The notes below the pieces were generated by a model. That model was not told the origin of the DNA. It did no database searches and was given only the letters and a program-made list of their open reading frames with translations. A program made the position numbers and the translations under genes. A stretch of DNA of 64,000 nucleotides, taken from Polyangium jinanense (GTDB taxonomy: Bacteria; Myxococcota_A; Polyangia; Polyangiales; Polyangiaceae). This document shows positions 27,693 through 48,452 of the stretch, piece after piece (within the stretch, counting starts at the first letter, position 1; every line of letters starts with the position of its first letter). The stretch spans positions 102,900 through 166,899 of the forward strand of contig NZ_JAGTJK010000012.1 of assembly GCF_028435265.1 (NCBI RefSeq), written 5' to 3'.

Positions 27693-28190
27693 ATGGGTTC
27701 GTGTAGGCACGCTCGGGGCGGAGCGAGGGGCAGGGCGCGATGGATCGCAGCGCTTGCCCTGGTCTTGCCTTTGGGCCTCGGGTGCTCCGCGGGTCCCCCG
27801 CCGACCCGGTTTCTCGTCGAGGTCGCAATCACCGCCAAGGCGAACCGGAATTCGCCCGTCCCCATGACCCTCGTCGCGGTCCAGGACGCGAAGCTCTTCG
27901 ACCAGATCATCAAGCTCACCGCCAAGCAGTGGTACGAGCAGCGCGAGCAGATGCGCCGGGATTTCCCGAGCGGCACCGCGTTCACCGAGTGGGATTGGGA
28001 ATTCGTCCCGGGCCAGGCCCCACCACCCATGGTCGTCGAGGTCGACGGCAAGGCCCTCGGCGCCGTCATCTTTGCAAACTACCGCTCGCCCGGCGATCAT
28101 CGCTTTCGTATTGGCCCGCAACGCCGGATGCGGGTCGACCTCGGCGACGACGACCTCGTCGTGAGCCCCCTCGATGCTCCGGAGGATTGA
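27693..28190 (+). CDS. tssJ: T6SS outer-membrane lipoprotein TssJ
   Basis: 165 aa with lipobox LPLGLGC. The fold pattern EVAITAKANRNSPVPMTLVAVQDAKLF...AVIFANYRSPGDHRFRI resembles SciN/TssJ. Its position directly 5' of tssK-tssL-tssM supports the call. Confidence 0.75.
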   Translation: MGSCRHARGGARGRARWIAALALVLPLGLGCSAGPPPTRFLVEVAITAKANRNSPVPMTLVAVQDAKLFDQIIKLTAKQWYEQREQMRRDFPSGTAFTEWDWEFVPGQAPPPMVVEVDGKALGAVIFANYRSPGDHRFRIGPQRRMRVDLGDDDLVVSPLDAPED

Positions 28191-28191
28191 C

Positions 28192-29520
28192 ATGCGCGCC
28201 GACGACATTCCGCTCGCGATTCAATGGCACGACGGGATGCTCCTGTCGCCGCAGCACTTCCAGGAAGCCGATCGCAGATCCGAACGCCTGCTCGCCTATC
28301 ACCTCGGACAAGCCGCGCCGTATCACCACGGCATCGTCGAACTCAAGCTCGCCGAAGGCACGCTCGGCAGCGGTCTCCTCCGTGTTCAGAAGGTCGAAGC
28401 CATCATGCCCGATGGCACCCTCGTCCATCACGCCGGCGGCAAACACGACCTCTCCGTCGACCTCCGCCCCCAGGCCGCGCTCGTCCGCGACGCACCCGCC
28501 ACCGTCTTCCTCGCCGTCCCGCGCGCGCAGGCCGCCGTCTCCGCCTCCGCCGCGGACCTTGCGCGCCACCGCTCCGCCGAAGGCGCGGCCGTCGTCGACG
28601 AACACACCGGCGAAGATCCCCTCGAGATCCCGCGCATCGCCCCGAGCGTCCGCCTCCTCGTCGCGGCCGAACCTCCGCCGCGCCTCGTCTGTTTGCGCAT
28701 CGCGCGCGTTCGCCTCGAAGGCGAGGCGTTCGTCGCGACCGACTACATCCCGCCGACCCTCGGCGTCGCCCCGGGCTCGCCCCTCGACGAGATGTGTCAA
28801 CGCCTTGCCGGTCGCCTCCGCGAGAAGGCCATGCGCCTCGCCGAAAAGGCGAACTTCCTCTCACGCACCACCGATCGCGAGCTCATCGGCGAGATCCGCC
28901 GCCAGATCCAGTGCCTCGTCGCCGCGCTCCCTCCCTTCGAGGCCGTCCTCTACTCCGAGCGCCCGCATCCGTTCTCCCTGTTCGTCACGCTCACGGGCCT
29001 CGTCGGCCAGATCTCCTCGCTCGCGCGCACGCCCGTGCCGCCGCTCCTGCCGAGGTACCGGCACGACGACCTCCGCGCGACCTTCGAGAATGCCCGCGAT
29101 CACATCTTCCGCATGGTCGACGAGGGCATCATCGAGTCGTTCACGGCCTATCCGTTCGACCTCAAGGAGGGCAAGTACAACGTCCTCTTCCAGCGCGAGT
29201 TCCGAACGCGCGCCGTCGTCATCGCCGTCCGCGCCCCGCGTGGCGTGCGCGAGGATCAGCTCCTCAACTGGATGAACGGCGCGCTCATCGGCGCCCCGGG
29301 GCGCCTGCGCACCATGCAGGAGAGCCGCATCCTCGGCGCTGGCAGGAAGCGCGTCGAGCGCCACGGCGACCTCGTCGCCACGCCCGGCACCTTGCTCTTC
29401 GAGCTCGAAGAGCAGAGCGTCTACCTCGACCCGGGCGAGCCGCTCACCTTGTGCAACACGGCCGATCCGACGGGCCAGAGCGGACCGTCCGAGGCGGTCC
29501 TCTACGTGAAGAGCGGGTAG
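28192..29520 (+). CDS. tssK: T6SS baseplate subunit TssK
   Basis: The ATG at 28192 follows a ggagga RBS. The N-terminus MRADDIPLAIQWHDGMLLSPQHFQEADRRSERLL is the canonical TssK start (W.eGm.L.PqHFQq.dr). ~442 aa. Confidence 0.9.
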   Translation: MRADDIPLAIQWHDGMLLSPQHFQEADRRSERLLAYHLGQAAPYHHGIVELKLAEGTLGSGLLRVQKVEAIMPDGTLVHHAGGKHDLSVDLRPQAALVRDAPATVFLAVPRAQAAVSASAADLARHRSAEGAAVVDEHTGEDPLEIPRIAPSVRLLVAAEPPPRLVCLRIARVRLEGEAFVATDYIPPTLGVAPGSPLDEMCQRLAGRLREKAMRLAEKANFLSRTTDRELIGEIRRQIQCLVAALPPFEAVLYSERPHPFSLFVTLTGLVGQISSLARTPVPPLLPRYRHDDLRATFENARDHIFRMVDEGIIESFTAYPFDLKEGKYNVLFQREFRTRAVVIAVRAPRGVREDQLLNWMNGALIGAPGRLRTMQESRILGAGRKRVERHGDLVATPGTLLFELEEQSVYLDPGEPLTLCNTADPTGQSGPSEAVLYVKSG

Positions 29521-29527
29521 GGGCGCG

Positions 29528-30283
29528 ATGGCTGCTTCTCCGGGACGCTTTGCGCTCGGCCCCAAACAGGCCGCCCTGCGGGACCAGCGCGTCCTCGTCG
29601 ACGCGTTCTGCAACTTCCACGCGGACGTCGTCACGCAGAAGCGCATCGTCGTCGCCTCGGGCGGCGTCATGCCCTACGACGCCGTCCAGCAGCGCCTCCT
29701 CGACGCCTTCGAACAGCAGGCCGGCAAGATCCAGAGCTCGCTCCCCGAGCACGAACGCCGCCTCTTCGAGGAGACCCGCTACGTCATGATCGCCATGGCC
29801 GACGAGGTCTTCCTCCACCTCGACTGGTTTGGCAAAGAGTACTGGGCAGACAAACCGCTCGAATCGATCGTCTTTCAGACCCGCGACTCGGGCGATCGTT
29901 TCTTCAATCGCATCGACGACGCCCTCAACGGACGCACCCCGGCGTCGTCGCAGCTCCTCACGGTGTACCTCACGGCCCTCGCGCTCGGCTTCCGCGGCCG
30001 GTACGCGCCCCTCGGCACCGGCGAGCCCGAGACCTACCGCGCGCGTATCGTCGACTTCCTCGCCCGCACCGATCCCGAGATCGTCCGCGGCGAAGACCTC
30101 TGCCCCCAGGCGCACGAGCACACCGCGACCGATACGCCCCAGAAACGTTTGCCCTCCCTCTCCCGAGGCATCCTGCCGTTCCTCGTCGTCATCCTCGGCT
30201 GGATCGTCATCGGTGAGATCCTCTGGCTTTATCGCACGGCCGAGCTCGACACCGTGCTCGACCGCATCGAGGACGCCACGTGA
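29528..30283 (+). CDS. tssL: T6SS membrane-complex protein TssL (DotU/IcmH family), without a peptidoglycan-binding extension
   Basis: YVMIAMADEVFL...SGDRFFNRIDDAL...LLTVYLTALALGFRGRY followed by a C-terminal TM helix (ILPFLVVILGWIVIGEILWLY) is the DotU pattern. 251 aa. Confidence 0.9.
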   Translation: MAASPGRFALGPKQAALRDQRVLVDAFCNFHADVVTQKRIVVASGGVMPYDAVQQRLLDAFEQQAGKIQSSLPEHERRLFEETRYVMIAMADEVFLHLDWFGKEYWADKPLESIVFQTRDSGDRFFNRIDDALNGRTPASSQLLTVYLTALALGFRGRYAPLGTGEPETYRARIVDFLARTDPEIVRGEDLCPQAHEHTATDTPQKRLPSLSRGILPFLVVILGWIVIGEILWLYRTAELDTVLDRIEDAT

Positions 30284-33200
30284 CCGTCGGCACCCTCCTC
30301 AAGATCGTCGCCGGCCTGATCGCGCTCGCCGTCGTTGGCGTCGGGATCTACGCGTTCGTCCTCGCGCAGAAAAAGAAAGCGCAGAAGGCCGCGGAGCTCG
30401 CGAGGCAGGGCGGCGCGCCCGATCCCATCGCCGAGATCCGCGCCTCCGTGGCCAAGGCCAAAGCCGCGCTCGTCAAGAAGGTCCAGGACAAGACCGCGCG
30501 CGAGGAGATGCCGCGCTACCTCGTCCTCGGCGAACCCTCGTCCGGAAAAACCACGCTCCTCGGCGGCTCGGGCCTCAGCGTCCAGCTCATGGAGGGCGGC
30601 GATCCCGCGCCCGGCGATACGTCGTCCGTCAACCTCTGGATGCTCGGCAAGGCCCTCATCGTCGACGTCGCCGGCCGCCTCCTCTTCGGCGAGGGCGGCA
30701 CGGCCGCGCCCGATCCGCCGTATCGCGCCCTGCTCCAGGAGCTCAAGCGCCTCCACCCCGATCGCCCCATCGACGGCATCCTGCTCACGGTCCCTTGCGC
30801 CGAGGTCATGCAGACGGCGCGCTCCACGCCCGCCGAGCGCAAGCGCAAGGCCACGATCCTGCGCGCCGCCATCTCCTTGGCGCAGCAGACCCTCGGCATG
30901 AACGTCCCGGTCTACGTGATCGTCACGCAGACCGATCGCCTCGCCGGTTTCCGTAGCCTCGGCATGGAGGTCGCGCAGACCCGTCGCGACGACATCCTCG
31001 GCTGGTCGAGCCCGCACCCGCCCTTCACCGACGGCTCCGAGGACTGGGCCTCCGAAGCGCTCGGCACCGTCCGCGATGCACTCCTCCGTTACCAGGCGCG
31101 ACGCTTCGCCGGCCCCTCCGTCGTCCGCGCGCCTGACGACTTTTTCCTGTTCCCGAGCGAGATCGAGGCGCTCACCGACGGCCTGCAAACCTACGTCGAC
31201 CCCGTCTTTCTCGAAGGCGCCGGCCAGGACACGCTCACCCTCCGCGGCATCTACTTTTGCGGCCTCGCCGATCCGCCCGGTCCTCCGCAGCTCACGGCCC
31301 CGGGCGCCACGCCCGCCGCGCTCGCGCCGCCGCCCGCGGCCGCGGCTGGGTCGGGCAAGGTCCTCTTCTCGAAGGACCTCTTCGAGCACAAAGTGTTTGC
31401 CGAGCGGAACCTCGGCCAGCCCGCGGCCGCCGCGCTCAGGAGCCGCCGGCGTATCAACCTCGCGCTCCAGATCGCGGCGTGTTGCCTCGGCGGCGCCTTC
31501 CTCGCGGCCCTCTGGATCGACGCCTCGCGCCTCGAACGCCGCACGAACGCGCTGATGCCGTTCCTCCGCGACGTGCAGAGCAACGTCCTTTCGGCGAAGA
31601 GCGAGGCCCCGGGCACCGAGGCGAACTTCGACGCCAAGAAGCTCCGCGCCAAGGCCCTGATCGAAAAACTCGAAACGATCGAAGAGTCGGGCCGCCTCCG
31701 CTCCCCGCTGAACCCCTCTTCCTGGTGGGGCCGCCTCGATCGCCGCGTCGATCAGGCGTTCGTCGTGGCCCTCGAGAGTGTCCTCGTCGACACCTTCCGC
31801 GCCGGCCTCAACGAGGAGGCCGCGCACCTCTTGCGCCCGCTCCCGCCGCAGCCCCCGCCCGACGCGTTTTTCCCCCTCAGCGTCGAGAAGAGCCAGGAGT
31901 ACATCAACCTGGAGACGTGGCTGCGCGAGCTCACCGCGTTCGAGGCCCACGTCGCGCGCCACGACGGCCTGCTCGGCGAGTTGCCCAAGGACGCCACGCC
32001 CGACGCCCGCATGCAGAGCGTCGCCGACCTCTCGGATTACCTGCTCGGCTACAAGACTTCGCCCACGATCGCGGTCGACTACTACCGCAACGCCCTCGCG
32101 CGCGGCGCGCGCCGTCAGCCCTTTGACGTCGCCCCGCGCCGCGATCCGGCTCGGGAGAAGGCCACGGCGCTCTTCAAGGGCCTGCAGGATCGGGTCCTCG
32201 AAGCCTACAGCGACGCCGTCGTCCGCGCCGACGTCGAGCAGCTCGTGCAGAGCCTCAAGGACCTCGAAACGAAGGGCGCCGAGTACACCGTGCAGGACCT
32301 CTGGACCTTGCGCGACACGATCGCCCGGGTCGAAGCGCACCTCGGCGCGCCCACGCTCTCCTGGGTCTCGGGCGAGTCGCTCCCGCCGAACGAGGGCATC
32401 GCGAACCTGCTCAAGACCGTCAAGAATTCGCGCCTCCTCGGCCCCGACGTCGAGGCGTCCTTGCGCGGCGGCGTCGACGCGCGCCTGCTCGACCTCAAGA
32501 CCTACGTCGCGAGCGCGGGCGCGCCCCTCTCCGGGCCCATCCTGGAGCGCAAGGGCGGCGTCCTGCTCATGCGCCTCTCGCCCTTCATCCTCGGGCTCAA
32601 GGCGCCCATCGACGCGCTCCGCCAGCAGACGTTCATGACGGCCGAGGAGGAGAAGACCCTCACGCCCGACGTCGATCGCTCGCGTGTCGACTGGGACGGC
32701 GAGGTGCTCAAAGAGGCCGCGCGTTTGCCCAAGGACTACGAGGCCTTCGTCCAGGGCGGCGTCCTCAAGACGGTCGATTCGCGCATCCGCAACACCATCT
32801 CCGACCTCACGGTCCGCCAGGTCAAGGCGAACACCCTCGGCGCCGTCGCCCGCGCCGCGCGCCCGGCCACGCCGCTGTCGGGGAACAACAATCGCCAGTT
32901 CGAGAACGTCCGCGCCGACGCCGCGAACCTCGGCCAGGCGATGGCGCCCATTCGCGAGATGATCGGCGCGTTCGTGCGCCTGCGCATGGACGACGCCCGC
33001 GATCGCCTGCGCGAGGTCTTGCGTGGCCAGGGCTCCGAGGTCCTCGGCCGCGGCGCCGACGTCCTGCGCGCCGAGAACCTCTACGGCCTCAAGAAGGGCG
33101 GCTTCACCTGGTGGGATGGCAAATCGACGCCGGCGTTCGAGGCGTTCAGCGTCCCCGACGCCGGGCGTTTGTCCGAGTATGCCGCGGCCCAGCGCACGCG

Positions 33201-34326
33201 CGCGGCCACGTTGCACAAGGAGCTCGCCGAGCCGCTGCTCACGGCCATGGAGAGCCCCGAGGTCGCGGGCGACGCGAGCGGTGATCCCAACGTCTCGCTC
33301 TGGCAGAACGTCGCCTGGCCGCTCAAGGATTACGAGAACAAGAAGGCGGGCAACGGGGTCTCGAACCTGGAGACCTTCATGCTCTCGGATCTCCCGCTCA
33401 TCACGGCGAAGAACTGCATCGCCGAGCTCGACAAACGCGCCGGCGTCGACGGCTCGGGCGGCTTCTTCGCGGGCAAGCAGAAGTACATCGTCGAGGAGCT
33501 GCGCGAGCGGTGCCGCGTCCTTGCCGGCGAGGAGATGCGTGATCGTTATGCCGCGCTCCGCCGCACCTTCAACCGCGAGCTGTCGGGCAAGTTCCCCTTC
33601 GTGAAGATCGAGCCGGGCATCCGCGTCGAGGACGCGCGGCCCGAGACCGTGCGGCGTTTCCTCCAGGACGCCGCCGATTTCCGTTCCGATTTCGGCTACG
33701 TCCTCGGCAAGGACACGAAGGCCTCGGCCGGCGAGGTCGGGCGATTCCTCGAAAAGATCGAGGCTGTCCGCGCCTTCATGATGCCCATGTGGGCGCAGGT
33801 CGAGTCGGCCGAGGACGGCATCTACGACGTCAAGGTCGAGTTCCGCGTCAATCCCGGCCTCGAGGTCGGCGGCAACCGCATCGCCGAGTGGGCCGTGCGC
33901 CTCGCGGACGAACGCCTGTGGCGCGACGGCCCCAAGGCCGAGGCGAGCTGGCGCGTGAACGACTCGGTCCGCCTCGATCTGCGCTGGGCGAAGAGCAGCC
34001 TCGACGTCCCGCTGCCGACGCAGGGCCCCAATGTCTTCGTCAATGATCGGACCGTCACGTTCGAGGAGCGCGGCCCCTGGGCGCTCTTGCGCATGATCGC
34101 GTTCCATCAGACCGCGGCGCGCGACGGCTCGCAGAAGACCGAGGGGGGCTCGCACGTGCTCGGCTTCGTCGTGCAATCGTCGCCCGATCCGACGGGTGGC
34201 TTCATCGAGCGCGTCGGCACCGACGCCAACACCGTCCGTGTCTTCATCCGCGTCGCGCTCACCGGCGTCGAGAAGGACCGGCTCCTCCGATACCCCGAGT
34301 TTCCGGCGATCGCCCCGAACCTTTAG
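30280..34326 (+). CDS. tssM: T6SS membrane-complex protein TssM (IcmF family)
   Basis: A GTG start overlaps the tssL stop (GTGA). There is an N-terminal TM helix and a Walker A motif LGEPSSGKTTLL. 1348 aa, in the syntenic position after tssL. Confidence 0.9.
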   Translation: MTVGTLLKIVAGLIALAVVGVGIYAFVLAQKKKAQKAAELARQGGAPDPIAEIRASVAKAKAALVKKVQDKTAREEMPRYLVLGEPSSGKTTLLGGSGLSVQLMEGGDPAPGDTSSVNLWMLGKALIVDVAGRLLFGEGGTAAPDPPYRALLQELKRLHPDRPIDGILLTVPCAEVMQTARSTPAERKRKATILRAAISLAQQTLGMNVPVYVIVTQTDRLAGFRSLGMEVAQTRRDDILGWSSPHPPFTDGSEDWASEALGTVRDALLRYQARRFAGPSVVRAPDDFFLFPSEIEALTDGLQTYVDPVFLEGAGQDTLTLRGIYFCGLADPPGPPQLTAPGATPAALAPPPAAAAGSGKVLFSKDLFEHKVFAERNLGQPAAAALRSRRRINLALQIAACCLGGAFLAALWIDASRLERRTNALMPFLRDVQSNVLSAKSEAPGTEANFDAKKLRAKALIEKLETIEESGRLRSPLNPSSWWGRLDRRVDQAFVVALESVLVDTFRAGLNEEAAHLLRPLPPQPPPDAFFPLSVEKSQEYINLETWLRELTAFEAHVARHDGLLGELPKDATPDARMQSVADLSDYLLGYKTSPTIAVDYYRNALARGARRQPFDVAPRRDPAREKATALFKGLQDRVLEAYSDAVVRADVEQLVQSLKDLETKGAEYTVQDLWTLRDTIARVEAHLGAPTLSWVSGESLPPNEGIANLLKTVKNSRLLGPDVEASLRGGVDARLLDLKTYVASAGAPLSGPILERKGGVLLMRLSPFILGLKAPIDALRQQTFMTAEEEKTLTPDVDRSRVDWDGEVLKEAARLPKDYEAFVQGGVLKTVDSRIRNTISDLTVRQVKANTLGAVARAARPATPLSGNNNRQFENVRADAANLGQAMAPIREMIGAFVRLRMDDARDRLREVLRGQGSEVLGRGADVLRAENLYGLKKGGFTWWDGKSTPAFEAFSVPDAGRLSEYAAAQRTRAATLHKELAEPLLTAMESPEVAGDASGDPNVSLWQNVAWPLKDYENKKAGNGVSNLETFMLSDLPLITAKNCIAELDKRAGVDGSGGFFAGKQKYIVEELRERCRVLAGEEMRDRYAALRRTFNRELSGKFPFVKIEPGIRVEDARPETVRRFLQDAADFRSDFGYVLGKDTKASAGEVGRFLEKIEAVRAFMMPMWAQVESAEDGIYDVKVEFRVNPGLEVGGNRIAEWAVRLADERLWRDGPKAEASWRVNDSVRLDLRWAKSSLDVPLPTQGPNVFVNDRTVTFEERGPWALLRMIAFHQTAARDGSQKTEGGSHVLGFVVQSSPDPTGGFIERVGTDANTVRVFIRVALTGVEKDRLLRYPEFPAIAPNL

Positions 34327-34340
34327 GAGACAGAGCCTCG

Positions 34341-35420
34341 ATGTCGACGAAGGCCCCGCTCATCGATCTGGAGATCCTGCTCCAGCCCATCTCCGAGGAG
34401 GCGCCTTGTGGCACGTCTCTCCGGTACGAAGGCACCTACGATCGGGTCCGCGAGGCGCGCCGCGAGGACGACCCCTCGCTGCCGATGGGCGAATGGGAGA
34501 CCAAGCTCAAGGTCTCCGACCTCGCGCTCGTGGACAAACTTTGCCAGGAAGCGCTGCGCAAGAAATCGAAGGACCTCCAGATCGCGGCCTGGCTCGTGGA
34601 GGCGTGGCTCCGGCGTTACCGCGTGAAGGGCCTCGGCCATGGTTTGTCCCTCGTCACCGGGCTCTGCGAGCGATTCTGGGACGGCCTCTTCCCCGAGGTG
34701 GGCGACGACCCCGACGCCGCGGCGCGCGCCGCGCTTTACGAGTGGATGGACGACGTCCTCTCCGATCGCCTGCGCCGCACGCCTTTCACGGAGGGCGACG
34801 GATCCTTTTCGCTGCTCGATTGGGAGCTCGGCGGCGCGTCTGTGTCCGCCGACGGGGAAGGGGAGGGCGCGCGGCCCACGCGAGAATCGCTGCTCGCCAA
34901 GATCTCGCTCGGCGGCGCGGGCACGCGCTGGACCGACATCGCGCTCGACGCGGGCACGGCCATCATGGCGGCCGAGGCGGCCGAGGCGGCGATCGCCGCG
35001 CAGATCTCGCGCCCGCCCACGCTCCGCCGCGTGCGGGAGGTCCTCACGCAGATCGAGCTCCTCGCGCGCGAAACGGCGCGTATCAACGGCGAGAGCGTGC
35101 CCGTGGCGAGCGCGCCCGCGGCGAGCCCGCCGCCGCTCGGATCGGCCGCTGCGGCTGCGGCGGCGTTCACGGCGCCTTCCGGGGGAGGGGCGGGCGGCTC
35201 GTTTGCGATCACGAGCCGCGCCGACGCCTATTATCGGCTCGCCGAGGCGGCCGAGTACCTCATGCGGACCGAGCCGCACAGCCCTGTGCCGTACCTGGTC
35301 AAACGTGCGGTGCAGTGGGGCAACATGTCGCTCGCCCAGCTCCTCTACGAGTTCGTAGGAAACCCCGATGATCTCGTGGCGATACAGCGCTTGCTCGGGA
35401 TGCGCGGGAGGGAGGAGTAA
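34341..35420 (+). CDS. tssA: T6SS protein TssA (ImpA N-terminal domain)
   Basis: PISEEAPCGTSLRYEGTYDRVREARREDDPSLPMGEWETKLKVSDLALVDKLCQEALRKKSKDLQIAAWLVEAWL...GLCERFWDGLFP is the ImpA_N signature. 359 aa. Confidence 0.9.
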   Translation: MSTKAPLIDLEILLQPISEEAPCGTSLRYEGTYDRVREARREDDPSLPMGEWETKLKVSDLALVDKLCQEALRKKSKDLQIAAWLVEAWLRRYRVKGLGHGLSLVTGLCERFWDGLFPEVGDDPDAAARAALYEWMDDVLSDRLRRTPFTEGDGSFSLLDWELGGASVSADGEGEGARPTRESLLAKISLGGAGTRWTDIALDAGTAIMAAEAAEAAIAAQISRPPTLRRVREVLTQIELLARETARINGESVPVASAPAASPPPLGSAAAAAAAFTAPSGGGAGGSFAITSRADAYYRLAEAAEYLMRTEPHSPVPYLVKRAVQWGNMSLAQLLYEFVGNPDDLVAIQRLLGMRGREE

Positions 35421-35593: not shown

Positions 35594-36094
35594 ATGGCAG
35601 AGAGCAAGCAGCACTGGCTGGACCGAAACCGTCCGCCGCGTGTGCAGATCACCTATGACGTCGAGACGGGCAACGCAATCGAGAAGAAAGAGATCCCGTT
35701 CGTGGTCGGCGTGCTCAGCGACCTGGGGCGGAACGAGGCAAACCCGCTGCCCAAGCTGAAGGATCGCAAGTTTGTCGAGATCGACCGCGACAATTTCAAC
35801 GACGTCCTCGCCTCGACGAAGCCCGAGATCACGGTGAAGGTCGACGACGTCCTCAAGGGCACCGGCAAGATCGGGATTCCGCTGACGTTCACGCACCTCG
35901 ACGATTTCCGGCCCGAGCGTCTCGTCGAGCGGATCCCGGAGCTCCGCAAGCTTCTTCGCGCGCGCGAGCGCCTGAACGATCTTCTCGCCAAGCTCGAGGG
36001 CAACGACGAGCTTTCGGCGGCGCTGCGTGAGGTCATGGAGAGCACGGATGCTCTCCAGAAGATCACGGCGGAAGTCTCCAAGGATCAGAGCTAG
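35594..36094 (+). CDS. tssB: T6SS contractile sheath small subunit TssB (VipA)
   Basis: RPPRVQITYDVETGNAIEKKEIPFVVGVLSDL... is the canonical TssB pattern. 166 aa, followed 20 nt later by tssC. Confidence 0.92.
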   Translation: MAESKQHWLDRNRPPRVQITYDVETGNAIEKKEIPFVVGVLSDLGRNEANPLPKLKDRKFVEIDRDNFNDVLASTKPEITVKVDDVLKGTGKIGIPLTFTHLDDFRPERLVERIPELRKLLRARERLNDLLAKLEGNDELSAALREVMESTDALQKITAEVSKDQS

Positions 36095-40533: not shown

Positions 40534-41558
40534 AGGCCTGGCTCTTCGACGAGGGGCACGCCTTCGATTTTTATCAGGCCGTCTCCCTCCTCGAACGCTT
40601 TCGGGAAGGCGACGCCGTCCCCGTCGGCGAGGGCTCCGATCCTTCGCGCGAGTCCGTGCGATTCGCCGGGAGCATCGCGCTCGCCTTCCCCGAGACCGAC
40701 GTCGCGCGCATTCGCCCGCCGCACCGCGAACGCGAGCCCGCGCAGATGCTCGTGAACTTCCTCGGTCTCGGCGGCGCCCTCGGCCCACTGCCGCCGCCGA
40801 TCGTCGAGTCGATTTACATGCGCGCCGTCCGCGGCGACACCGCGGCGCGGGATTTCCTCGACATCTTCAACCATCGCCTCGTCTCGTTCGCATATCGCAT
40901 CCGCAAGAACCATCGCCTCGGCCTCGGCATCTCCTCGCCCGAAAAAGACGGCGCGGCGCGGCACCTCTTCGCGCTCATGGGCCTCGGCTTTCAGGCGCTC
41001 GAAGGCCGCCTCGCGGTCCAGGATCGCGCCCTGCTCGAACACGCGGCAAACCTCGGAAGCGAGTCCCGTTCGCTCGAAGGCCTCGTCGCCATTCTCCGCC
41101 GGCATTTCGGCGTCCCCATCGAGCCCATCCCGCTCACAGGCGCCTTTCACCCGATCGAGGAAAACGATCGCACGGCGATCGGCCGATCCGGTCAGAACCG
41201 CGCACTCGGCCGCGACGCATGTCTGGGGGGCCGTTTCTGGGATCAGGAGTCCACGTTCGATCTGCGCATCGGGCCCATGAAGCTCGATGAATTCCTGCGA
41301 TTCCTCCCGGACGGCGACGCGCTCCGGCCTCTCTGCTCCCTCGTCCGTTTTTATGCAGGCGCACGATTCCACTTTGGCCTCATCCTCGTGCTGGCCGAGG
41401 GCGAGGCGCCGCGGATCGAGCTCGGCCGCGCCACGTGCGCGCTCCTCGGCCAAATCGCCTGGCTCGGAAACGTGAACAAGCACGGCGGCAGGGTGCGCGA
41501 GGTGCGTTTGTCGCGTGCGGCCATTCGGAAAGGCCTCGGTGAGGCGCCGGGCGGCTGA
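40497..41558 (+). CDS. tssG: T6SS baseplate subunit TssG
   Basis: The ATG at 40497 is in frame with track ORF 40317..41558 and overlaps tssF by 37 nt. FDFYQAVSLLERF...VRFAGSIALAFPETDV...MLVNFLGLGGALGPLP is the TssG pattern. Confidence 0.88.
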   Translation: MAAHGWRKSPSVEAWLFDEGHAFDFYQAVSLLERFREGDAVPVGEGSDPSRESVRFAGSIALAFPETDVARIRPPHREREPAQMLVNFLGLGGALGPLPPPIVESIYMRAVRGDTAARDFLDIFNHRLVSFAYRIRKNHRLGLGISSPEKDGAARHLFALMGLGFQALEGRLAVQDRALLEHAANLGSESRSLEGLVAILRRHFGVPIEPIPLTGAFHPIEENDRTAIGRSGQNRALGRDACLGGRFWDQESTFDLRIGPMKLDEFLRFLPDGDALRPLCSLVRFYAGARFHFGLILVLAEGEAPRIELGRATCALLGQIAWLGNVNKHGGRVREVRLSRAAIRKGLGEAPGG

Positions 41559-41611: not shown

Positions 41612-44600
41612 ATGACGACTGCAGAACAGAGCCAGGGCGCCACGGAGAGCATTCCGAGCAAGCTCGGGAAGTTCGCCACGGAGCAGATCGACAAGGCCGA
41701 GGTCACGGTCACGAAGGGCGTCTCTACCGTCCGTGACTCCACGAACCAGATCATCAGCAAGGCCGAAGAGCAGATCCTCAAGCTCAACAAGGCCCTCTAC
41801 GAGACCAAGAACGGCATCTCGTCCGGCATCGACACGGCCATCAAGGAGACGGAAGGCCAGCTCAAAGGGATCACGCCCGAGCTCAAGAAGATGGGCGAGG
41901 ATGCGATCAAGACGGCCAAGGACAAACTCGACGGACTCGTCGACGAGGTCGAGGGCAAGCTCGAATCGCAAAAAGACTCGCTCGTCAAGACGGCGCAGGA
42001 TCAGATTCGGAACGCGGCCGATCAGGCGAAGGGCAAGATCGACGAGATCGGACAGCTCGGCGAGGATCAGGCGAAGAAGGTCCTCGATGCGGTCAAGACG
42101 CAGGCCGACACCGTCGATCAGAAGCTCGGCGATCTCGAGGGGCAGATCGACGGCAAGATCCAGGCGATCGGCGACGACGTGCGCGGCAAGTTCGAAGCGG
42201 CGCTCGCCAAGGTGCCGGATCACGACGGCGCGAAGGTCGAGATGTCGGCGAACGTCGACGCCGTCGTCGCGGAGCTGCGTAGTGCCACGAAGGACTCGAT
42301 CGAGCAGGCGCGCGAGACGCTCAAGTCGCTGGTCAAGCAGACCGACGACACGATCATGCAGACGATCGGCGACGTGCGGCGCGCGATCGGCGAGGTCCCC
42401 GCTCGCATCAACCAGTGTGCGCAGGACATCCTCGCGAAGGTCAATGACGCGATCCAGAAGACGATCGACGAGATCTCGAACCTCGCGCACGGGCTCGTGG
42501 CGCGCACGGCGGAGCTGCTCAACCAGGCGCTGCTCACGATCACGAGCACCGTCGACAAACTCCTCGCCGACGGCTTCGCGCTCGTGCGTGGGATCAAGGC
42601 GGATCTCGATCGTCTCCTCGACAAACTGCTCGAACAGATCCGGGATCTGACGCTCGGCACGCTGGAGGACGTCCGCAAGGCGGCGAACGAGCTACTCGGC
42701 ACGTTCGAGGCTGAATGCAAGAAGATCCTCCAGACGATGGAGGAGTCCGTCATCGGCTCGGTCGAGGAGCTCGGCGGCAAGATGAACGCCTCGATCAAGG
42801 CGCTCCAGGCCGACCTGAACCTCGATGCCGACAAGATCGTCCGGGACCTCGTGGCCGAGGGCGCGAAAGGGCACGACGACGCGCTCGCCGACTTCATCAG
42901 CGCTGGTTATTCCGAGGACACCTCGGTCATCCCCAAGATCCGGGCCAAGGGCGAGGCTGCGATCAAGCAGATCGAGGCCAAGACGAAGGCCCAAGGGGAG
43001 AAGCTGATCAAGGACTTCGAGATGCAGGCGACCCTGCTGAAGCCCAAGATCCAGGCGCAGGGTATCAAGGTCGTCGCGCAGATCGCCGCGCTCGGACCGA
43101 AGCTTGCGATGCAGGCGGTCCAGATTGCGACGAGCATCGCGTCGTCCATCAAGGACAAGGGCGAGGCGGTCAAGAAGACGTTCGAGGAGCTGCAAAAGAC
43201 GCTCGTCGACGCGATCACGAAGAAGATCCCCGATTACCTCGAAAACTGCAAGAAGCAGATCAAGGCCGCGGCCGATGCGCTCGTCGAGGCGGGCAAGACG
43301 TTCTACGAGAAGACGCTCGCCGACATCATGGGGGCGATCAAGGCGGCCGAGGCGCGGTTCAAGCAGCTTGCCTCGGAGATGAAGGACCTCATCGAGACGC
43401 AGGTCCTCGCGCTCGTGGCCTCCATTCGCAGGACGGTGGAGACGTCCATCCAGCGCTTCAAGGATCTCGGCGCCGCGTTCGAGGAAAAGACGAATGCGCT
43501 CGTCAACGACATCCCGGCGCGGCTCATCAAGCTGGAGCAGGTCGCGCGGCTCGCGGTCGAGCGCGAGATCACGCTGGCGAAGGGGCTCGCCAATGCGACG
43601 AAGGACGACATTCTCCTGAAGGCGCGGACGACGCTGTCGGAGATCAAAAAAGCGGCGTACGGGGTCCTCGGCGGCATCCGGGGCGATTTCGGCGCGGTGC
43701 AGGGATCGCTCGCGCTCATCGTCCCGGCGGGCGCGGGGCTCGACGCGGCGGGCGCGATCAACCTCGCGGTCTCGGGCGGGCTCGAAGGGATGATCGCGTC
43801 GGCGGCGAATGCGGCGCAGGCCGCGGTGACGGCGGGCGTGAATGCGGCCGAGGCCGTGAACAATGCAGCCGAGCAGGCGGCGGCCGCGATGAGCGCGGCT
43901 GGATTCGACGGCGCGGCGAAGTCATTGACGGACGTGCTCTCGCAGCAGATGGGCGAGGTGCGGACGGAGGGCGAGAAGGCCAAGAACGTCATTGCCGCGG
44001 CGAAGGAGAAGATGACGGCGGTCGCCAAGGAGGCGACGGACACCTGCACGCAGGCGGCGCAGGCGGCGCAGGCCGCGGCCGCGGAGGTCGTGGCGGCCGC
44101 GAATTCGACGGGCGACGCGATCAAGGCGTCGGCGGAGAACCTGACGAAGGGCCTCGAAAAGGCGAAGGACATCGTCAAGGATGCCGGCAAGGCCGCGATG
44201 CAATCGATGAAAGAGGCCCAGGACGTGCGCAAGGGAGGCGACGGCGCGCAAGCCGGCGCGGGTGCGCAGGCCAAGGCCGGCGGGGCGGATGGCGCGGCGG
44301 CGGGCGCGGATGCGGGCGGCGCGGATGGCTTGGCGGTGCCCGAGGGCGAGGCGGCGGCTCCGGAAGGGGAGGCGGCCGCGGCTCCGGGCGGCGCGGAGGC
44401 GGCTCCGGACGGCGCGGCGGCGGCTCCGGATGTCAAGGCAGCGGCTCCGGATGCCAAGGCGGCGGTTCCGGATGCCAAGGTGGCGGTTCCGGATGCCAAG
44501 GTGGCGGTTCCGGATGCCAAGGTGGCGGCTCCGGATGCCTCGAAATCGGCGCCGGATGTCCCGAAATCGGCGCCGGATGTCTCGAAACCGGAACTGGACG

Positions 44601-45289
44601 TCTCGAAACCGGAACCAGGCGCCGATGTAGCGGCGGTGGCCGCCAAGGTACCGGATCCGGCTGCCAAGGTAGCGGCTCCGGCCGCCAAGGTAGAGGTGCC
44701 GGCCGCCAAGGTAGAGGCGCCGGCCGCCAAGGTAGAGGCGCCGGCCGCCAAGGTAGAGGCGCCGGCCGCCAAGGTAGAAATTCCGGGCGCCCCGAAAGCG
44801 GCGCCGGCCGCCAAGGTAGAAATTCCGGCCGCCCCGAAGGCGGCGCCGGCCGCCAAGGTAGACATTCCGGCTGCCAAGGTAGACGTTCCGGCTGCCAAGG
44901 CGGTGCCCGGCGTGCCGGAAGGCAAGGCTCCGGCGCCCCCAGGCAAAGCTGCGATGCCGGAAGGCAAACCGCAGGTGCCCGAAGGCGGCATGCCCGGGGT
45001 GCCAAAAACCGGCGAAAAGCCCGCCTTTCCTCCCGCCCCCGCGCCTCAGGCCCCCGCGCCTCCCGCTCCGGCGGACGTGGCCCCCTTCGCGCCCGCGCCG
45101 AAGCCGCCGGCCGCGCCCGCCGTCCCTGCCGGCGCGAAACCCGCGCCCGCCGCGCCCGCCGCCCCCGTGATCCCTGCCGGCGCGAAACCCGCGCCCGCCG
45201 CGCCCGCGCCGCCCGCCACGCCCGCGGCCAAGCCCGTCGTTCCCGCCGCCCCCGGCAGCAAATGGCCTGGCAGCGGCAACAAGCCTTGA
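41612..45289 (+). CDS. Uncharacterised 1225-aa helical-repeat protein with a Pro/Ala/Lys-rich tandem-repeat C-terminus, last gene of the T6SS core operon
   Basis: It starts 53 nt after tssG on the same strand. No signal peptide or TM helix is evident. The first ~870 aa are K/E/D/A/Q-rich amphipathic-helix-like sequence (for example KAEEQILKLNKALYETKNGISSGIDTAIKETEGQLKGITPELKKMGEDAIKTAKDKLDGLVDEVEGKLES). The last ~350 aa contain AVPDAKV, SAPDV(P/S)K and PAAKVE(A/V/I) heptad repeats and then an AP-rich tail. No enzymatic motif was recognised. Confidence 0.75.
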   Translation: MTTAEQSQGATESIPSKLGKFATEQIDKAEVTVTKGVSTVRDSTNQIISKAEEQILKLNKALYETKNGISSGIDTAIKETEGQLKGITPELKKMGEDAIKTAKDKLDGLVDEVEGKLESQKDSLVKTAQDQIRNAADQAKGKIDEIGQLGEDQAKKVLDAVKTQADTVDQKLGDLEGQIDGKIQAIGDDVRGKFEAALAKVPDHDGAKVEMSANVDAVVAELRSATKDSIEQARETLKSLVKQTDDTIMQTIGDVRRAIGEVPARINQCAQDILAKVNDAIQKTIDEISNLAHGLVARTAELLNQALLTITSTVDKLLADGFALVRGIKADLDRLLDKLLEQIRDLTLGTLEDVRKAANELLGTFEAECKKILQTMEESVIGSVEELGGKMNASIKALQADLNLDADKIVRDLVAEGAKGHDDALADFISAGYSEDTSVIPKIRAKGEAAIKQIEAKTKAQGEKLIKDFEMQATLLKPKIQAQGIKVVAQIAALGPKLAMQAVQIATSIASSIKDKGEAVKKTFEELQKTLVDAITKKIPDYLENCKKQIKAAADALVEAGKTFYEKTLADIMGAIKAAEARFKQLASEMKDLIETQVLALVASIRRTVETSIQRFKDLGAAFEEKTNALVNDIPARLIKLEQVARLAVEREITLAKGLANATKDDILLKARTTLSEIKKAAYGVLGGIRGDFGAVQGSLALIVPAGAGLDAAGAINLAVSGGLEGMIASAANAAQAAVTAGVNAAEAVNNAAEQAAAAMSAAGFDGAAKSLTDVLSQQMGEVRTEGEKAKNVIAAAKEKMTAVAKEATDTCTQAAQAAQAAAAEVVAAANSTGDAIKASAENLTKGLEKAKDIVKDAGKAAMQSMKEAQDVRKGGDGAQAGAGAQAKAGGADGAAAGADAGGADGLAVPEGEAAAPEGEAAAAPGGAEAAPDGAAAAPDVKAAAPDAKAAVPDAKVAVPDAKVAVPDAKVAAPDASKSAPDVPKSAPDVSKPELDVSKPEPGADVAAVAAKVPDPAAKVAAPAAKVEVPAAKVEAPAAKVEAPAAKVEAPAAKVEIPGAPKAAPAAKVEIPAAPKAAPAAKVDIPAAKVDVPAAKAVPGVPEGKAPAPPGKAAMPEGKPQVPEGGMPGVPKTGEKPAFPPAPAPQAPAPPAPADVAPFAPAPKPPAAPAVPAGAKPAPAAPAAPVIPAGAKPAPAAPAPPATPAAKPVVPAAPGSKWPGSGNKP
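44420..44900 (+). repeat. In-frame 21-bp tandem repeat blocks inside the 1225-aa gene
   Basis: Block 1 (~44420..44625) has units like gcggttccggatgccaaggtg and ggcgccggatgtcccgaaatc. Block 2 (~44655..44900) has units like ccggccgccaaggtagaggcg. Several adjacent units are identical. Confidence 0.85.
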
Positions 45290-45296
45290 AGAGCGC

Positions 45297-45686
45297 TCAG
45301 GGCACCTGCACCGTGACCTGCCCGGGGAACGAGATCTGAATCACCCCGCCCCACATGCACATCAGCTTCGAGCTGTTGTTCAGCGCGGGCATGTTCGCGA
45401 GCAGCACCGTTGGGGCACCGACGATCCACGGCGCCGGCGTGTTCGGAATGCACGGCATTGGCGTGAGCACGCCCATCGCCGCCGCCGTCGCCGCGGCCAC
45501 CGTCGGGTTCGCCAGGCTCTGACACATCCCGAACGGCAGCACGTTCAGCATGGGCTTGCCGTCCATGATGTTCGCCAGCGGCCCCGCGCTGTTCATCGTC
45601 CGGTTCGCGGGAAGCACCGTGAGCGAGCTCGGCGCCACGCCGAAGCTGCATTGCATCATCGCCCCCATGCATACGTGCTGGCCCAT
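45297..45686 (-). CDS. DUF4280 (PAAR-like) spike-tip protein, stand-alone
   Basis: 129 aa. GAMMQCSFGVAPSSLTVLP...NVLPFGMCQSLANP...PCIPNTPAPWIVGAPTVLLANMPALNNSSKLMCMWGGVIQISFPGQ matches the DUF4280 pattern (C.FG...L.V...FG.C...C.P...W...C..GG.I.I...GQ). It is the last gene of the vgrG operon. Confidence 0.8.
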   Translation of the reverse strand: MGQHVCMGAMMQCSFGVAPSSLTVLPANRTMNSAGPLANIMDGKPMLNVLPFGMCQSLANPTVAAATAAAMGVLTPMPCIPNTPAPWIVGAPTVLLANMPALNNSSKLMCMWGGVIQISFPGQVTVQVP

Positions 45687-45688
45687 CG

Positions 45689-46441
45689 TCAGCCTCCCGC
45701 GAGCTTGTTCACGACCTTGTCGAAGAAGGACTCTTTTTTCTCCTCCTTCGCCTTCGGAATGCCCTTGTCGTCGTACTCGACCTCGCCGCGCTTCTCGCCG
45801 TCCTTGTACGTCGCCTTCGCCTTCAGCTTGCCCTGCACGTCGTAGCTGAACGCGTCGCCTTGCTTCTTGCCGTTGTCATAGATGGCGCGCTCGCGGACCT
45901 CGCCGTTCGGGAAGTACTCGATCACCTCCCCGTGCAGTTTGTCGGCCTTGTAGCTCGCTTTGCGCAGGGTGTTGCCCTTGCCGTCGAGGAACAAGGATTC
46001 CCCTTCGAGCTTGCCGTTCTTGTAGAACGACCGGACGACCTCGTTGCCCTGCTCGTCGAACGACATGAACGGGCCGTTCTGCTTGCCCTTCTCGAAATGC
46101 ATGAGCGTCCGGAGCCGGCCGTCGTCGTAGAGCCGCGTCGGCCCGTGCTGCTCGCCCTTCGCGAACGTGACGATCTGCGAGACCTTGCCGTTCTCGTCTA
46201 CGATCTTCGTCTCGCCGTGGAGCACGCCGTCCTGGAATGACGAACGCTCGACCTCGCGTCCTTCCGGATCGTACGTGATCGACAAACCGTGCAGCTTGCC
46301 GTTCTTGTAATTCGCCCGGTGCGCGATCTGCTTTTCGGTCTCCCCGTACTGGACGAACTCGCCGTGGAGCACGCCGTCTTCCATCTCGAACCGGGAGATC
46401 AGCTTGCCGTTCTCGTCGCGCTCTTCGTGGTCGGTCGGCAT
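45689..46441 (-). CDS. MORN-variant repeat protein (YwqK-family-like)
   Basis: 250 aa with ~9 repeats of the form Y.NGK.HG....Y...G (NYKNGKLHGLSITYDPEG, FQDGVLHGETKIVDENG, FYKNGKLEGESLFLDGKG, YKADKLHGEVIEYFPNG...) and a Lys-rich tail. It lies between vgrG and the DUF4280 gene with 10- and 2-nt spacers. Confidence 0.75.
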   Translation of the reverse strand: MPTDHEERDENGKLISRFEMEDGVLHGEFVQYGETEKQIAHRANYKNGKLHGLSITYDPEGREVERSSFQDGVLHGETKIVDENGKVSQIVTFAKGEQHGPTRLYDDGRLRTLMHFEKGKQNGPFMSFDEQGNEVVRSFYKNGKLEGESLFLDGKGNTLRKASYKADKLHGEVIEYFPNGEVRERAIYDNGKKQGDAFSYDVQGKLKAKATYKDGEKRGEVEYDDKGIPKAKEEKKESFFDKVVNKLAGG

Positions 46442-46451
46442 CGGATCCTCG

Positions 46452-48452
46452 CTAATTGATCTTCACCATGCCGCCCTTCAAGGTCAGCATGCCGCCGCCC
46501 TCCACCGCCGCCTGCGCGCCGCCCTTCGCCTTCAGCGCGATCGCGCCCTCGAGCGTCATGTTCGTCCCGCCCTTGGCCTTGAAATCGGTGCCGGCCTTCA
46601 GGTCCATCGCCGTCCCGGACTCGGCCTTGAAATCCGTGCCCGCCTTCATCGAAAACGCCTGCTTGGCCTTGATCGTGACGCTCTTCGCCTCGATCACGAG
46701 GTCGCCGTCGACCTTGATCGTGTAGTTCTTCGTCACCTTGTAATCGAGGTTCGCCTTGTTCGTGTGCGCCTCGTCCTTGGTGACCGTGAGCGTGCGTTTG
46801 CCCTTCACGCTGTGCGTCTCGTCGCCCTTGTCGACCTTGATCGTGCGGTTGCCCTTGGTGACCGTGAGCGTCTCGTCGCCCTCCTCGATCGTCACCTTCC
46901 GCTCGTTTTTGACGTTCTTCGTGTAATCGTGGAGGACCTTGACCGTCCAGTCGTTCTCCACCTCGAAGAGCATGTCCTTCTGGGCGTGCGCGTAAAACTC
47001 CTCGTTATCCTTCTTGTCGTCGAAGCGCAGTTCGTTCCCCGCCTCGCCCTCCTTCGACGATCGGCTCAGGATCGTGCTCTTCGTCTGCGCGCCCGGCAGC
47101 CCATAAGGCACCGTCTGCTCGGCGTTGTACACCGAGCCCGTCACGAGCGGCCTGTCCGGGTCGCCGTCGATGAAGCTCACGACGACCTCCTGCCCGATGC
47201 GCGGCAAGAACCACGCGCCCCAGCTCTTGCCCGCCCACGCCTGCACGACGCGCACGAAGCACGAGCTCTTGTCGTCCTTCGCGCCCTTGCGATCCCAGTG
47301 GAACTGGACCTTGATGCGCCCGTATTCGTCGGTCCACTGCTCCTCGCCGCTCTTGCCCACGACGACGGCCGTCTGCGTGCCGGGGATCGCGGGCTTCGGC
47401 GTGATGCGCGGCGGGCGGTACGACGTCTTCTTCGGGAACGCCTCGAAGGTATTCGTGTACCCCTCCTGGCTTGCGCGGTGCATGATCGAGGTGAGAACCC
47501 AGTCCGTGTTCGCGTCGTCCCGATCGTGCTCGTCGAGCTTGAACGCGTGCCCCGCCGTGAAGGCGCGGCAGCTCGATGTACCCGACAAACGCACCGCCCG
47601 CGCCTCCTCGGCCTCGATGCGGAGCTTCGCGCGCGTGTCGCCCGGGCTTTTCTCGATGTGCCCGCCCGGGTACTCGAAGAGCTCGAGCTTGGCCGTTTCG
47701 CCCGAGACCTCCGCGAGCAGCGACGTGCTCGGCATCTCGAAGTTGTAATCCGTCGACGCGTACTTTCCCGCGACGATCTCCTCTTCGAGCGTGCACTCGA
47801 GGACGGCGTCCTCGTCCGTCGACGTGGAGAACTGCTCGACGAACCGCGCCTTGTCGAGGTTCGGGCACGGCGCGGCCGACGCGCTGTCGTCCGAGAGCAC
47901 CATCACGTGCTTGCCGTCCTCGTGCTTGAAATAATAATGGATCCCCTCGTCCTCCATGAGCCGCGACACGAAATCGAGCGCGGTCTCCTGGTACTGCACG
48001 CAGTAGGGGCGCGGGGTGTAGGAGCCCTTCAGCGAATCCTTGAAGTGCTCGCCCGACGAGAAGCCGAGCTCCTGGAAGAGCGCCTTCAGGATGTCGGGCA
48101 CGCTCTTCTCCTGGAAGATCCGGCAATCGCTGGTCTTGCCGAGCAGCCATAACCACGGGTGCAGCTCCGCGCGGTAACGCGTCTGCTTGCCGACGCGCCC
48201 CGCCTGGACGAACCGCGTGCAGATCCCGTGGATGAAGCGCGGCTTCTCCTTGGCCATGCCCCGGATCGTCAAGGTCACGCCCTTGCCGACGATCGCCTTG
48301 AAGTCGAGCGCCTTCTCCGGCGACAAAAGCTCGAGCTCGAAGCGGAAGAGCCCCGAGATCCGCTCTTCGCCATGCAGATCGACGAGCAGCACCGCGTCCG
48401 CGCCGAAGGGCGTCGAGATGGCGATGCCGAGGGTGCCCTGCGGATAAGGCAT
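46452..48452 (-). CDS. vgrG: T6SS spike protein VgrG (TssI), no C-terminal effector extension
   Basis: 666 aa. LLVDLHGEERISGLFRFELELLS..., YRAELHPWLWLLGKTSDCRIFQEKSVPDILKALF and RVVQAWAGKSWGAWFLPRIGQEVVVSFIDGDPDRPLVTGSVYN are followed by gp5-like beta-helix repeats (HSVKGKRTLTV.., DYKVTKNYTIKVDGDL..). Confidence 0.92.
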   Translation of the reverse strand: MPYPQGTLGIAISTPFGADAVLLVDLHGEERISGLFRFELELLSPEKALDFKAIVGKGVTLTIRGMAKEKPRFIHGICTRFVQAGRVGKQTRYRAELHPWLWLLGKTSDCRIFQEKSVPDILKALFQELGFSSGEHFKDSLKGSYTPRPYCVQYQETALDFVSRLMEDEGIHYYFKHEDGKHVMVLSDDSASAAPCPNLDKARFVEQFSTSTDEDAVLECTLEEEIVAGKYASTDYNFEMPSTSLLAEVSGETAKLELFEYPGGHIEKSPGDTRAKLRIEAEEARAVRLSGTSSCRAFTAGHAFKLDEHDRDDANTDWVLTSIMHRASQEGYTNTFEAFPKKTSYRPPRITPKPAIPGTQTAVVVGKSGEEQWTDEYGRIKVQFHWDRKGAKDDKSSCFVRVVQAWAGKSWGAWFLPRIGQEVVVSFIDGDPDRPLVTGSVYNAEQTVPYGLPGAQTKSTILSRSSKEGEAGNELRFDDKKDNEEFYAHAQKDMLFEVENDWTVKVLHDYTKNVKNERKVTIEEGDETLTVTKGNRTIKVDKGDETHSVKGKRTLTVTKDEAHTNKANLDYKVTKNYTIKVDGDLVIEAKSVTIKAKQAFSMKAGTDFKAESGTAMDLKAGTDFKAKGGTNMTLEGAIALKAKGGAQAAVEGGGMLTLKGGMVKIN

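Follow-up and report, generated by a model that had tools for sequence, protein, structure and literature searches.

The Myxococcus xanthus DK1622 type VI secretion system (T6SS; MXAN_4800-4813) has the gene order vgrG, tssJ, K, L, M, two open reading frames (ORFs), tssB, C, hcp, E, F, G, MXAN_4813, and this last gene (COG0542), next after tssG, has been listed as the ATPase ClpV, also known as TssH (Förster et al.). Operons of the canonical type (T6SS-i) without tssH are documented in Campylobacter jejuni, for which it has been asked whether a distal ATPase or another route of sheath disassembly is at play (PMC8285248), and Francisella, which is without clpV, needs ClpB for its T6SS dynamics (PMC5481754; PMC10433429). 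Here we describe a T6SS locus of Polyangium jinanense contained in a 64-kb stretch of contig NZ_JAGTJK010000012.1 (the window, meaning the whole stretch of DNA analyzed). M. xanthus belongs to the same phylum and its locus is collinear with that of Polyangium from tssJ to tssG, however, M. xanthus has clpV right after tssG whereas Polyangium has a different gene, ORF X, exactly there. A gene-order comparison with related Myxococcota, as a first-pass annotation of the window had recommended, also found clpV absent around the Polyangiaceae loci. In addition, vgrG lies upstream of tssJ in M. xanthus but downstream in Polyangium, where it is convergent and accompanied by a MORN-repeat gene and a DUF4280 gene. 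The window holds no ClpV, and the reading we favor, with a probability of roughly 0.5, is that this is a functional canonical T6SS-i served by a ClpV encoded elsewhere in the genome.

Gene content of the locus and the search for ClpV

Shadow ORFs abound in DNA of high GC content, and the window, at ~68% G+C, has 216 ORFs of at least 100 amino acids (aa); genes were therefore picked among them by third-codon-position GC (GC3). The T6SS genes lie in 27693-48452, between flanks of unrelated genes that take up 27 kb and 15 kb of the window, and follow the plus-strand order tssJ-K-L-M-A-B-C-hcp-E-F-G with vgrG convergent (Table 1). Overlaps occur at J/K (17 nucleotides, nt), L/M (4 nt), E/F (4 nt), and F/G (37 nt), and the remaining intergenic gaps in the tss operon measure 7-173 nt; coordinates and Pfam matches both agree with the tight packing and converging vgrG reported in the first-pass annotation. 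Its count of 12 of the 13 core components (TssA-M), with TssH/ClpV as the missing one, also holds, as 11 (TssK, L, M, A, B, C, Hcp, E, F, G, and VgrG) are identified by Pfam far above the curated cutoffs and TssJ by its lipobox, position, and predicted fold. The parts of a T6SS-i are found as follows: a sheath of TssB/TssC (PF05591, PF05943, PF18945), a tube and spike of Hcp, VgrG, and a PAAR-like DUF4280 tip, a baseplate of TssE, TssF, TssG, and TssK with TssA as cap/initiator, and a membrane complex in which TssL and TssM were recognized by Pfam and TssJ by lipobox and fold. The IglA/IglB-type sheath and non-canonical components of the T6SS-ii type were not found in the locus; TssH apart, all canonical Tss families are present. 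TssL is indeed as short as had been claimed, its 251 aa consisting of a DotU domain and a C-terminal transmembrane helix and ending ~20 residues past that helix, with no peptidoglycan-binding extension by Pfam or by the end of the sequence. Pfam, run on all sizeable ORFs of the window, found no FHA, PpkA/PppA, TagF (DUF2094), or AAA+ domains, in keeping with the earlier statement that FHA/TagH, PpkA/PppA, and TagF regulators are missing.

The search for ClpV in the window was negative at every level. Walker A motifs occur only three times in the six frames, in TssM, in a 2,092-aa gene (57347-63625), and in one non-coding frame, and a six-frame scan of the 64 kb found no Walker B motif downstream of any of the three. 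Three full-length ClpVs from related loci gave no tblastn match in the window at E≤1e-5. Fifty of the 120 TssH proteins retrieved as relatives of a related-locus ClpV were turned into a ClpV profile hidden Markov model (HMM). With every heuristic filter disabled, it was searched against all six-frame stop-to-stop segments of 30 aa or more, and its top score in the window was 0.7 bits (E=3.3). A Clp_N-type N-domain with two AAA+ modules is present in no window ORF, ORF X included. Neither a ClpV, nor the remnant of one as a pseudogene, nor any Hsp100-type module exists in the 64 kb, and TssH/ClpV is not encoded with the system within this span. The claim that the window lacks tssH or any double AAA+ ORF is thereby confirmed by motif scan, tblastn, and filter-off HMM alike, and the AAA+ domain that might have been hidden in an unassigned ORF did not appear in the HMM search (best score 0.7 bits).

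TssJ and its partner TssM depart strongly from known sequence profiles. Neither Pfam nor NCBIfam recognizes the TssJ ORF, even at E≤10. Its lipoprotein signal ends in a lipobox, LGLGC, and many of its 64 homologs are labeled “type VI secretion system protein” by the Joint Genome Institute (JGI). An AlphaFold model from a 37-sequence alignment (predicted local distance difference test, pLDDT, 84.6) was compared with the PDB by Foldseek, and the ten best matches were all TssJ/Lip/SciN (E 2.5e-6, probability 1.0). They include 4a1r (Serratia Lip), 6ixh (membrane core complex), 3zhn (P. aeruginosa TssJ1), chains of 4y7o (a TssM entry from enteroaggregative Escherichia coli, EAEC), and 3rx9 (SciN). 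On the strength of lipobox, position, and predicted fold we assign this ORF to TssJ. The Pfam match of TssM is limited to the N-terminal IcmF-related domain. Judged by such profile matches, the periplasmic TssJ-TssM pair is highly divergent in this subfamily, and T6SS callers that rely on profiles would overlook it. A by-product of the analysis is a divergent TssJ family that is invisible to sequence profiles.

ClpV in related loci and the N-terminal helix of TssC

The comparison set consisted of 80 loci around the closest TssG relatives; M. xanthus falls outside these 80, and its locus and that of Polyangium are therefore not close orthologs. TssG is 96% identical in Polyangium sp. 15x6, 93% in P. 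fumosum DSM 14668, 93% in Polyangium sp. y55x31, 57-59% in Sorangium, and 50% in Minicystis. Among Polyangium, TssB, TssC, and TssF are 91-99% identical, and TssC is still 70-79% identical to that of Sorangium and Minicystis. From this strong conservation of the core genes it follows that the locus is kept by selection. Within ±10 kb of tssG, ClpV was found in none of 4 Polyangium assemblies, 3 Polyangium/Polyangiaceae metagenome-assembled genomes (MAGs), 3 complete Sorangium genomes (NC_010162, CP150338, CP150344), or Minicystis (CP016211). Similarly, the 10 kb upstream of tssJ contain nothing Clp-like in a Byssovorax MAG and two large metagenomic contigs of 509 kb and 273 kb, which were found through TssJ similarity. 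By comparison of these sequences, the ClpV-less layout is a conserved trait of the whole family Polyangiaceae and not a recent accident, and the intact and highly conserved core proteins argue for a working system. Together with the unrelated genes on both sides of the locus, this pattern in relatives leaves little weight to the objection, raised in the first-pass annotation, that a tssH immediately outside the window would make the absence trivial. The gene that follows vgrG in Sorangium encodes a HEAT-repeat protein, and the next one, in two of the three genomes, encodes an AAA_22/AAA_16-like protein of 588 aa with one P-loop. The 588-aa protein was considered as a ClpV substitute and rejected, as it is absent from Sorangium L009 and from the window.

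Outside the family, many loci of the set from Nitrospinota, Thermoanaerobaculia, Desulfobacterota, and Bacteroidota have clpV as the gene next to tssG on its downstream side, and in other relatives (Acidobacteriota, Thermoanaerobaculia, and others) it lies 2-9 kb downstream, past VgrG-MORN-PAAR and cargo. A clpV-vgrG island on a 2.09-Mb metagenomic contig (L089, 10001-14845) has no core T6SS genes within ±10 kb, and its ClpV is 69% identical to the ClpV of the related locus L075. The position of ClpV is labile in related systems, with L089 as a direct precedent for an unlinked ClpV. The neighbors of clpV and vgrG in L089 include eCIS_core-domain genes and a PIN-domain gene. VgrG/DUF2169 islands apart from the main T6SS locus have been described in Sorangium and P. 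fumosum (PMC13392464), which makes scattered T6SS modules a known feature of Polyangiaceae genomes, and we found no gene-level account of T6SS content in Polyangium or Sorangium in the literature.

The sheath itself provides further evidence. The best sequence match of TssC in the PDB is a solved sheath, 9n4v (E 5e-209, 698 bits). TssC also aligns over its full length with the 494-aa TssC chain of 5urw (409 bits), which we take to be that of M. xanthus, compared with 241 bits for Francisella IglB (3j9o). The N-terminal helix of TssC reads SAIIDQILSEG in the window, SLIDQILAQG in Sorangium, and SLLDQILSEG in Minicystis, with variable preceding residues, and aligns with SLLDEILSEA of the 5urw chain and LSLLDRIIAEG of 9n4v. 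According to published structural work, this helix binds a groove specific to the N-domain of ClpV. The motif is of the LLDEII type that has been tied to the Vibrio cholerae class of ClpV (Förster et al.). The helix motif is present in 20 of 20 related loci with a visible ClpV, and ClpV is visible in 0 of 9 motif-less loci (Pyrinomonadaceae and relatives, with full 10-kb flanks). This pattern suggests that the helix disappears once ClpV has gone, and its retention in Polyangiaceae would then point to a ClpV-type partner.

We lean toward an unlinked ClpV because the TssC helix has been retained and because the position of ClpV varies in relatives. The gene is no longer part of the Polyangiaceae locus, and the standard recycling mechanism would most likely be unchanged. 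Contraction would expose the N-terminal helix of TssC, the N-domain of a ClpV-type Hsp100 hexamer would grip the exposed helix, and the hexamer, encoded at an unlinked site in a very large genome, would thread and depolymerize the sheath. Several points weigh against this reading. The unlinked ClpV is inferred, the reading of this genome having covered the 64-kb window. A ClpV protein search of a 5.8-billion-protein collection gave 8,000 matches, the best 120 of which are all at least 59% identical; none of these 120 is named Polyangium or Sorangium, although a more divergent copy may exist beyond them. Of the matches, the high-GC P0073 and P0021 were set aside as belonging to other organisms, and P0027, considered as a Polyangia copy, as lying on an unrelated metagenome contig. 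Furthermore, the association between motif and ClpV lacks phylogenetic independence, all nine loci without the motif coming from a few related Acidobacteriota lineages. Finally, the helix could be kept for a structural reason in the sheath, or for ClpB or another partner.

The last of these points leads to an alternative in which the contracted sheath is depolymerized by a co-opted Hsp100, either the housekeeping disaggregase ClpB or another paralog, and no dedicated ClpV exists, as in the T6SS-ii of Francisella, which lacks clpV and depends on ClpB (PMC5481754; PMC10433429). Co-option would be consistent with the family-wide absence of ClpV from the locus, and extra COG0542 paralogs (MXAN_4823-4825, 4832) are present in the region listed with the M. 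xanthus T6SS. However, the sheath is that of a canonical T6SS-i, scoring far higher against 9n4v and the 5urw TssC than against IglB, and its retained helix is of the kind found together with ClpV in related loci; we regard co-option as unlikely. It is also conceivable that no unfoldase acts on this sheath, in which case firing would be rare or limited to one event per assembly and contracted sheaths would be cleared slowly by spontaneous disassembly, dilution, or proteolysis. Clearance of this kind might be tolerated by a slow-growing myxobacterium, and clpV mutants of V. cholerae fire occasionally and keep some killing (PMC10433429). This scenario is rendered improbable by the conservation of the ClpV-binding-type helix at family-level divergence, when the residues preceding it are variable, and by the related lineages without the helix being those that show no ClpV, which suggests that an unused helix is lost.

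TssC without an N-terminal LLDxI[ILV] helix is found in the Pyrinomonadaceae/Blastocatellia group, in L024, L033, L035, L036, L037, and L044 and likewise in L046, L049, L065, L073, L076, and L078. Those with full 10-kb flanks show no ClpV, and these loci may be better candidates than Polyangium for a truly ClpV-independent T6SS-i.

ORF X, the vgrG module, and neighboring genes

ORF X (1,225 codons) starts 53 nt past tssG on the same strand. The deposited annotation has in its place a 562-aa minus-strand ORF (43303-44991), which matches TIGR03057 (xxxLxxG heptad repeat) at 48.8 bits. In the plus-strand frame of ORF X, GC at the three codon positions is ~0.65/0.40/0.90, and in a comparison of four Polyangium orthologs the substitutions relative to L002 number 15/8/91 at plus-strand codon positions 1/2/3. 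The coding signal also runs on through 41612-43300, where the plus frame alone is open. On these three grounds the true gene is probably the plus-strand ORF X and the deposited minus-strand call a strand mis-annotation, which, as a second by-product of the analysis, would hide a conserved 1,225-aa gene. A single-sequence model (pLDDT 61) shows residues ~1-750 as a small number of very long alpha-helices, and residues ~900-1225 form a stretch rich in Ala and Pro that contains eight PAAKV[ED]x heptads. This tail is encoded by a 21-nt tandem array of ~30 units (44295-44938).

The array has consequences for assembly. All four orthologous Polyangium contigs (L002-L005) end at window 44,300-44,340, and short-read assemblies therefore break at the 21-nt repeat. 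The junction of ORF X with the PAAR-like gene is thus seen in this assembly only, the four others breaking at the array, and a mis-assembly at this repeat could in principle have removed clpV, or the locus could be in decay. Nevertheless, either artefact is highly improbable considering that none of the 12 core genes is damaged and all show strong conservation, that the filter-off HMM found no ClpV remnant in the window, and that a Polyangium MAG (L006) and the three complete Sorangium genomes, all contiguous, show tssG followed by the convergent vgrG module with no ClpV.

ORF X is a real, conserved, and rare gene. An exhaustive HMMER search of 1.84 billion representatives found 34 relatives, about nine of them full length (1,054-2,275 aa, 23-28% identity) and sharing an invariant AGY-ED-SVIP-IR-KGE core. 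In two relatives, one encoded at 5932-10881 of L084 (metagenome contig Ga0075163_10012873) and the other being protein P0191, the helical part is followed by a peptidoglycan-binding domain of the OmpA family, in one case below the Pfam cutoff; both lack a signal peptide and a transmembrane segment. The family was also considered for a transmembrane topology, which was dropped, as there is no convincing hydrophobic segment. ORF X contains no Walker A motif and gives no ClpV HMM signal, its Pfam matches being weak and of Apolipoprotein type.

Its place directly behind tssG raises the possibility that ORF X is a new accessory factor with a ClpV-related role in sheath turnover, capping, or anchoring. 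The 53-nt spacing on the same strand, purifying selection in five Polyangium genomes, and a rare family with a conserved motif and two members with OmpA-type peptidoglycan-binding domains would all fit such a role. On the other hand, there is no ATPase motif, and ORF X has no counterpart in Sorangium, in Minicystis, or in L006 and L008, the more distant Polyangium MAGs, all of which are also ClpV-less. The sole relative with a visible flank (6 kb upstream) has no T6SS genes nearby, and a promoter-like site lies within the gap between tssG and ORF X. A ClpV-related role is very unlikely on this evidence. The same small chance attaches to a Polyangiaceae T6SS-i that has no dedicated Hsp100 and in which ORF X would handle or stabilize the sheath, or anchor the apparatus, as an ATP-independent alternative to recycling by ClpV. 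It is probable that ORF X is cargo or an unrelated insertion with no mechanistic tie to sheath recycling.

Beyond ORF X, vgrG, the MORN-repeat gene, and the DUF4280 PAAR-like gene form a convergent operon. ORF X, the MORN and DUF4280 genes, and the two PG_binding_1 genes past vgrG (Table 1) are additions to the first-pass annotation. The VgrG-MORN-DUF4280 triad is kept as a unit in many loci (within L015-L079) of Myxococcota, Acidobacteriota, Nitrospinota, and other phyla; its MORN protein may act as a conserved adaptor for the spike. No inverted repeats that might explain the inversion of the vgrG module were found around it. In L006 (4901-10354), homologs of the 1,295-aa and 469-aa genes stand in one string with vgrG-MORN-PAAR. 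Because of this shared string, the products of both genes are likely T6SS cargo whose gene order has been reshuffled between species. The 469-aa protein is probably T6SS cargo or an adaptor, and the 1,295-aa protein, by its domains, a candidate cell-wall-degrading effector. A 195-nt direct repeat of 89% identity (49372-49566/49648-49842) inside the 469-aa gene indicates a duplicated domain.

Just upstream of tssJ, 23816-25396 (plus strand) encodes a 526-aa protein with a C-terminal WHH/colicin-DNase nuclease toxin domain, and the ORF behind it (25891-26616, plus strand) encodes 241 aa, is hydrophobic, and matches no family; these two may be a T6SS effector/immunity pair. Giant TPR-repeat proteins of ~1,500-1,675 aa are encoded at 4343-9370 and 9376-14205 on the minus strand and at 15399-19898 on the plus strand. 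The 2,092-aa protein, encoded on the plus strand, has MopE-type metal-binding motifs, and minus-strand shadow ORFs in its region have very high GC3. Pfam matches on other ORFs of the window comprise the TPR giants, a rotamase, a polyhydroxyalkanoate (PHA)-granule protein, the WHH/colicin-DNase toxin, a methyltransferase, and others.

Table 1. Features of the Polyangium jinanense T6SS locus and its surroundings (window coordinates, except for the Sorangium row).
Feature	Position	Strand	Evidence and remarks
tssJ, outer-membrane lipoprotein, divergent	27693-28190	+	No Pfam match; lipobox, position, predicted fold; overlaps tssK start
tssK, baseplate	28174-29520	+	PF05936, E 1.6e-47
tssL, DotU only	29528-30283	+	PF09850, E 3.4e-29
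tssM	30280-34326	+	PF14331, E 1.1e-45; Walker A GEPSSGKT at 30529-30552
tssA (ImpA_N)	34341-35420	+	PF06812, E 3.7e-34
tssB, small sheath subunit	35594-36094	+	PF05591, E 8.3e-53
tssC, large sheath subunit	36115-37617	+	PF05943 and PF18945
hcp (tssD)	37721-38215	+	PF05638, E 3.7e-37
tssE (gp25-like)	38252-38728	+	PF04965, E 1.1e-13
tssF	38725-40533	+	PF05947, E 6.3e-196
tssG	40497-41558	+	PF06996, E 6.7e-87; 353-aa start as in the deposited gene call
ORF X, 1,225 aa, predicted all-alpha, Ala/Pro repeat tail	41612-45289	+	Weak Apolipoprotein-type Pfam matches
PAAR-like spike-tip protein (DUF4280)	45297-45686	-	PF14107, E 1.1e-35; partial similarity to IglG
MORN-repeat protein, between vgrG and PAAR-like gene	45689-46441	-	PF07661, E 1.4e-18
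vgrG (tssI)	46452-48452	-	PF05954, E 3.5e-97, with PF22178 and PF04717
469-aa protein	48451-49860	+	No significant Pfam match; homolog in the L006 vgrG-MORN-PAAR string
1,295-aa protein, M74-like murein endopeptidase region	50099-53986	+	PG_binding_1 PF01471, E 4.3e-12; PF03411, E 1.8e-7
224-aa protein, PG_binding_1 and weak LysM match	53991-54665	-	Convergent with the 1,295-aa gene
Sorangium HEAT-repeat/588-aa P-loop region	L011 15103-18094; L010 15955-19050	-	No counterpart of the 588-aa protein in the Polyangium window

Comparison with known systems

The Acidobacteriota, Thermoanaerobaculia, and Nitrospinota loci (L015-L081) belong to the same subfamily as the Polyangium locus, with TssG, TssC, and TssF at 42-65% identity, and share with it the VgrG-MORN-DUF4280 triad and the N-terminal motif of TssC. 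However, many of them encode ClpV, after tssG or 2-9 kb downstream, whereas none is seen in the Polyangiaceae loci. Should there be an unlinked tssH, which we judge likely, the finding would mostly serve as a caution for automated T6SS callers. Core genes would then be dispersed in very large myxobacterial genomes, and completeness scores based on the locus would under-call such systems.

The T6SS-ii of Francisella resembles the Polyangium locus in having no clpV, its sheath being taken apart by an unlinked ClpB (PMC5481754). Nevertheless, Francisella is non-canonical, with IglA/B and divergent parts, whereas the Polyangium sheath is nearer to T6SS-i by the bit scores given above (698 and 409 vs. 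241).

The ClpV-less locus is real but moderately unusual, as T6SS-i operons without tssH were already known from Campylobacter, and the novelty implied in the first-pass annotation was overstated in this regard (PMC8285248). Like the Polyangium locus, the C. jejuni/Helicobacter type has all structural T6SS-i core genes except TssH/ClpV. C. jejuni differs in belonging to another phylum, in its small genome, and in carrying tagH (FHA), which is absent at the Polyangium locus; moreover, the absence of ClpV in Polyangium applies to the locus and its 64-kb window, unlike the genome-wide criterion of the Campylobacter type. Should the Polyangiaceae truly lack any ClpV, their sheath would still bear the ClpV handle and would be useful for understanding helix function and sheath clearance, and the family would be the second distant group after Campylobacter/Helicobacter to possess a motorless canonical T6SS-i.

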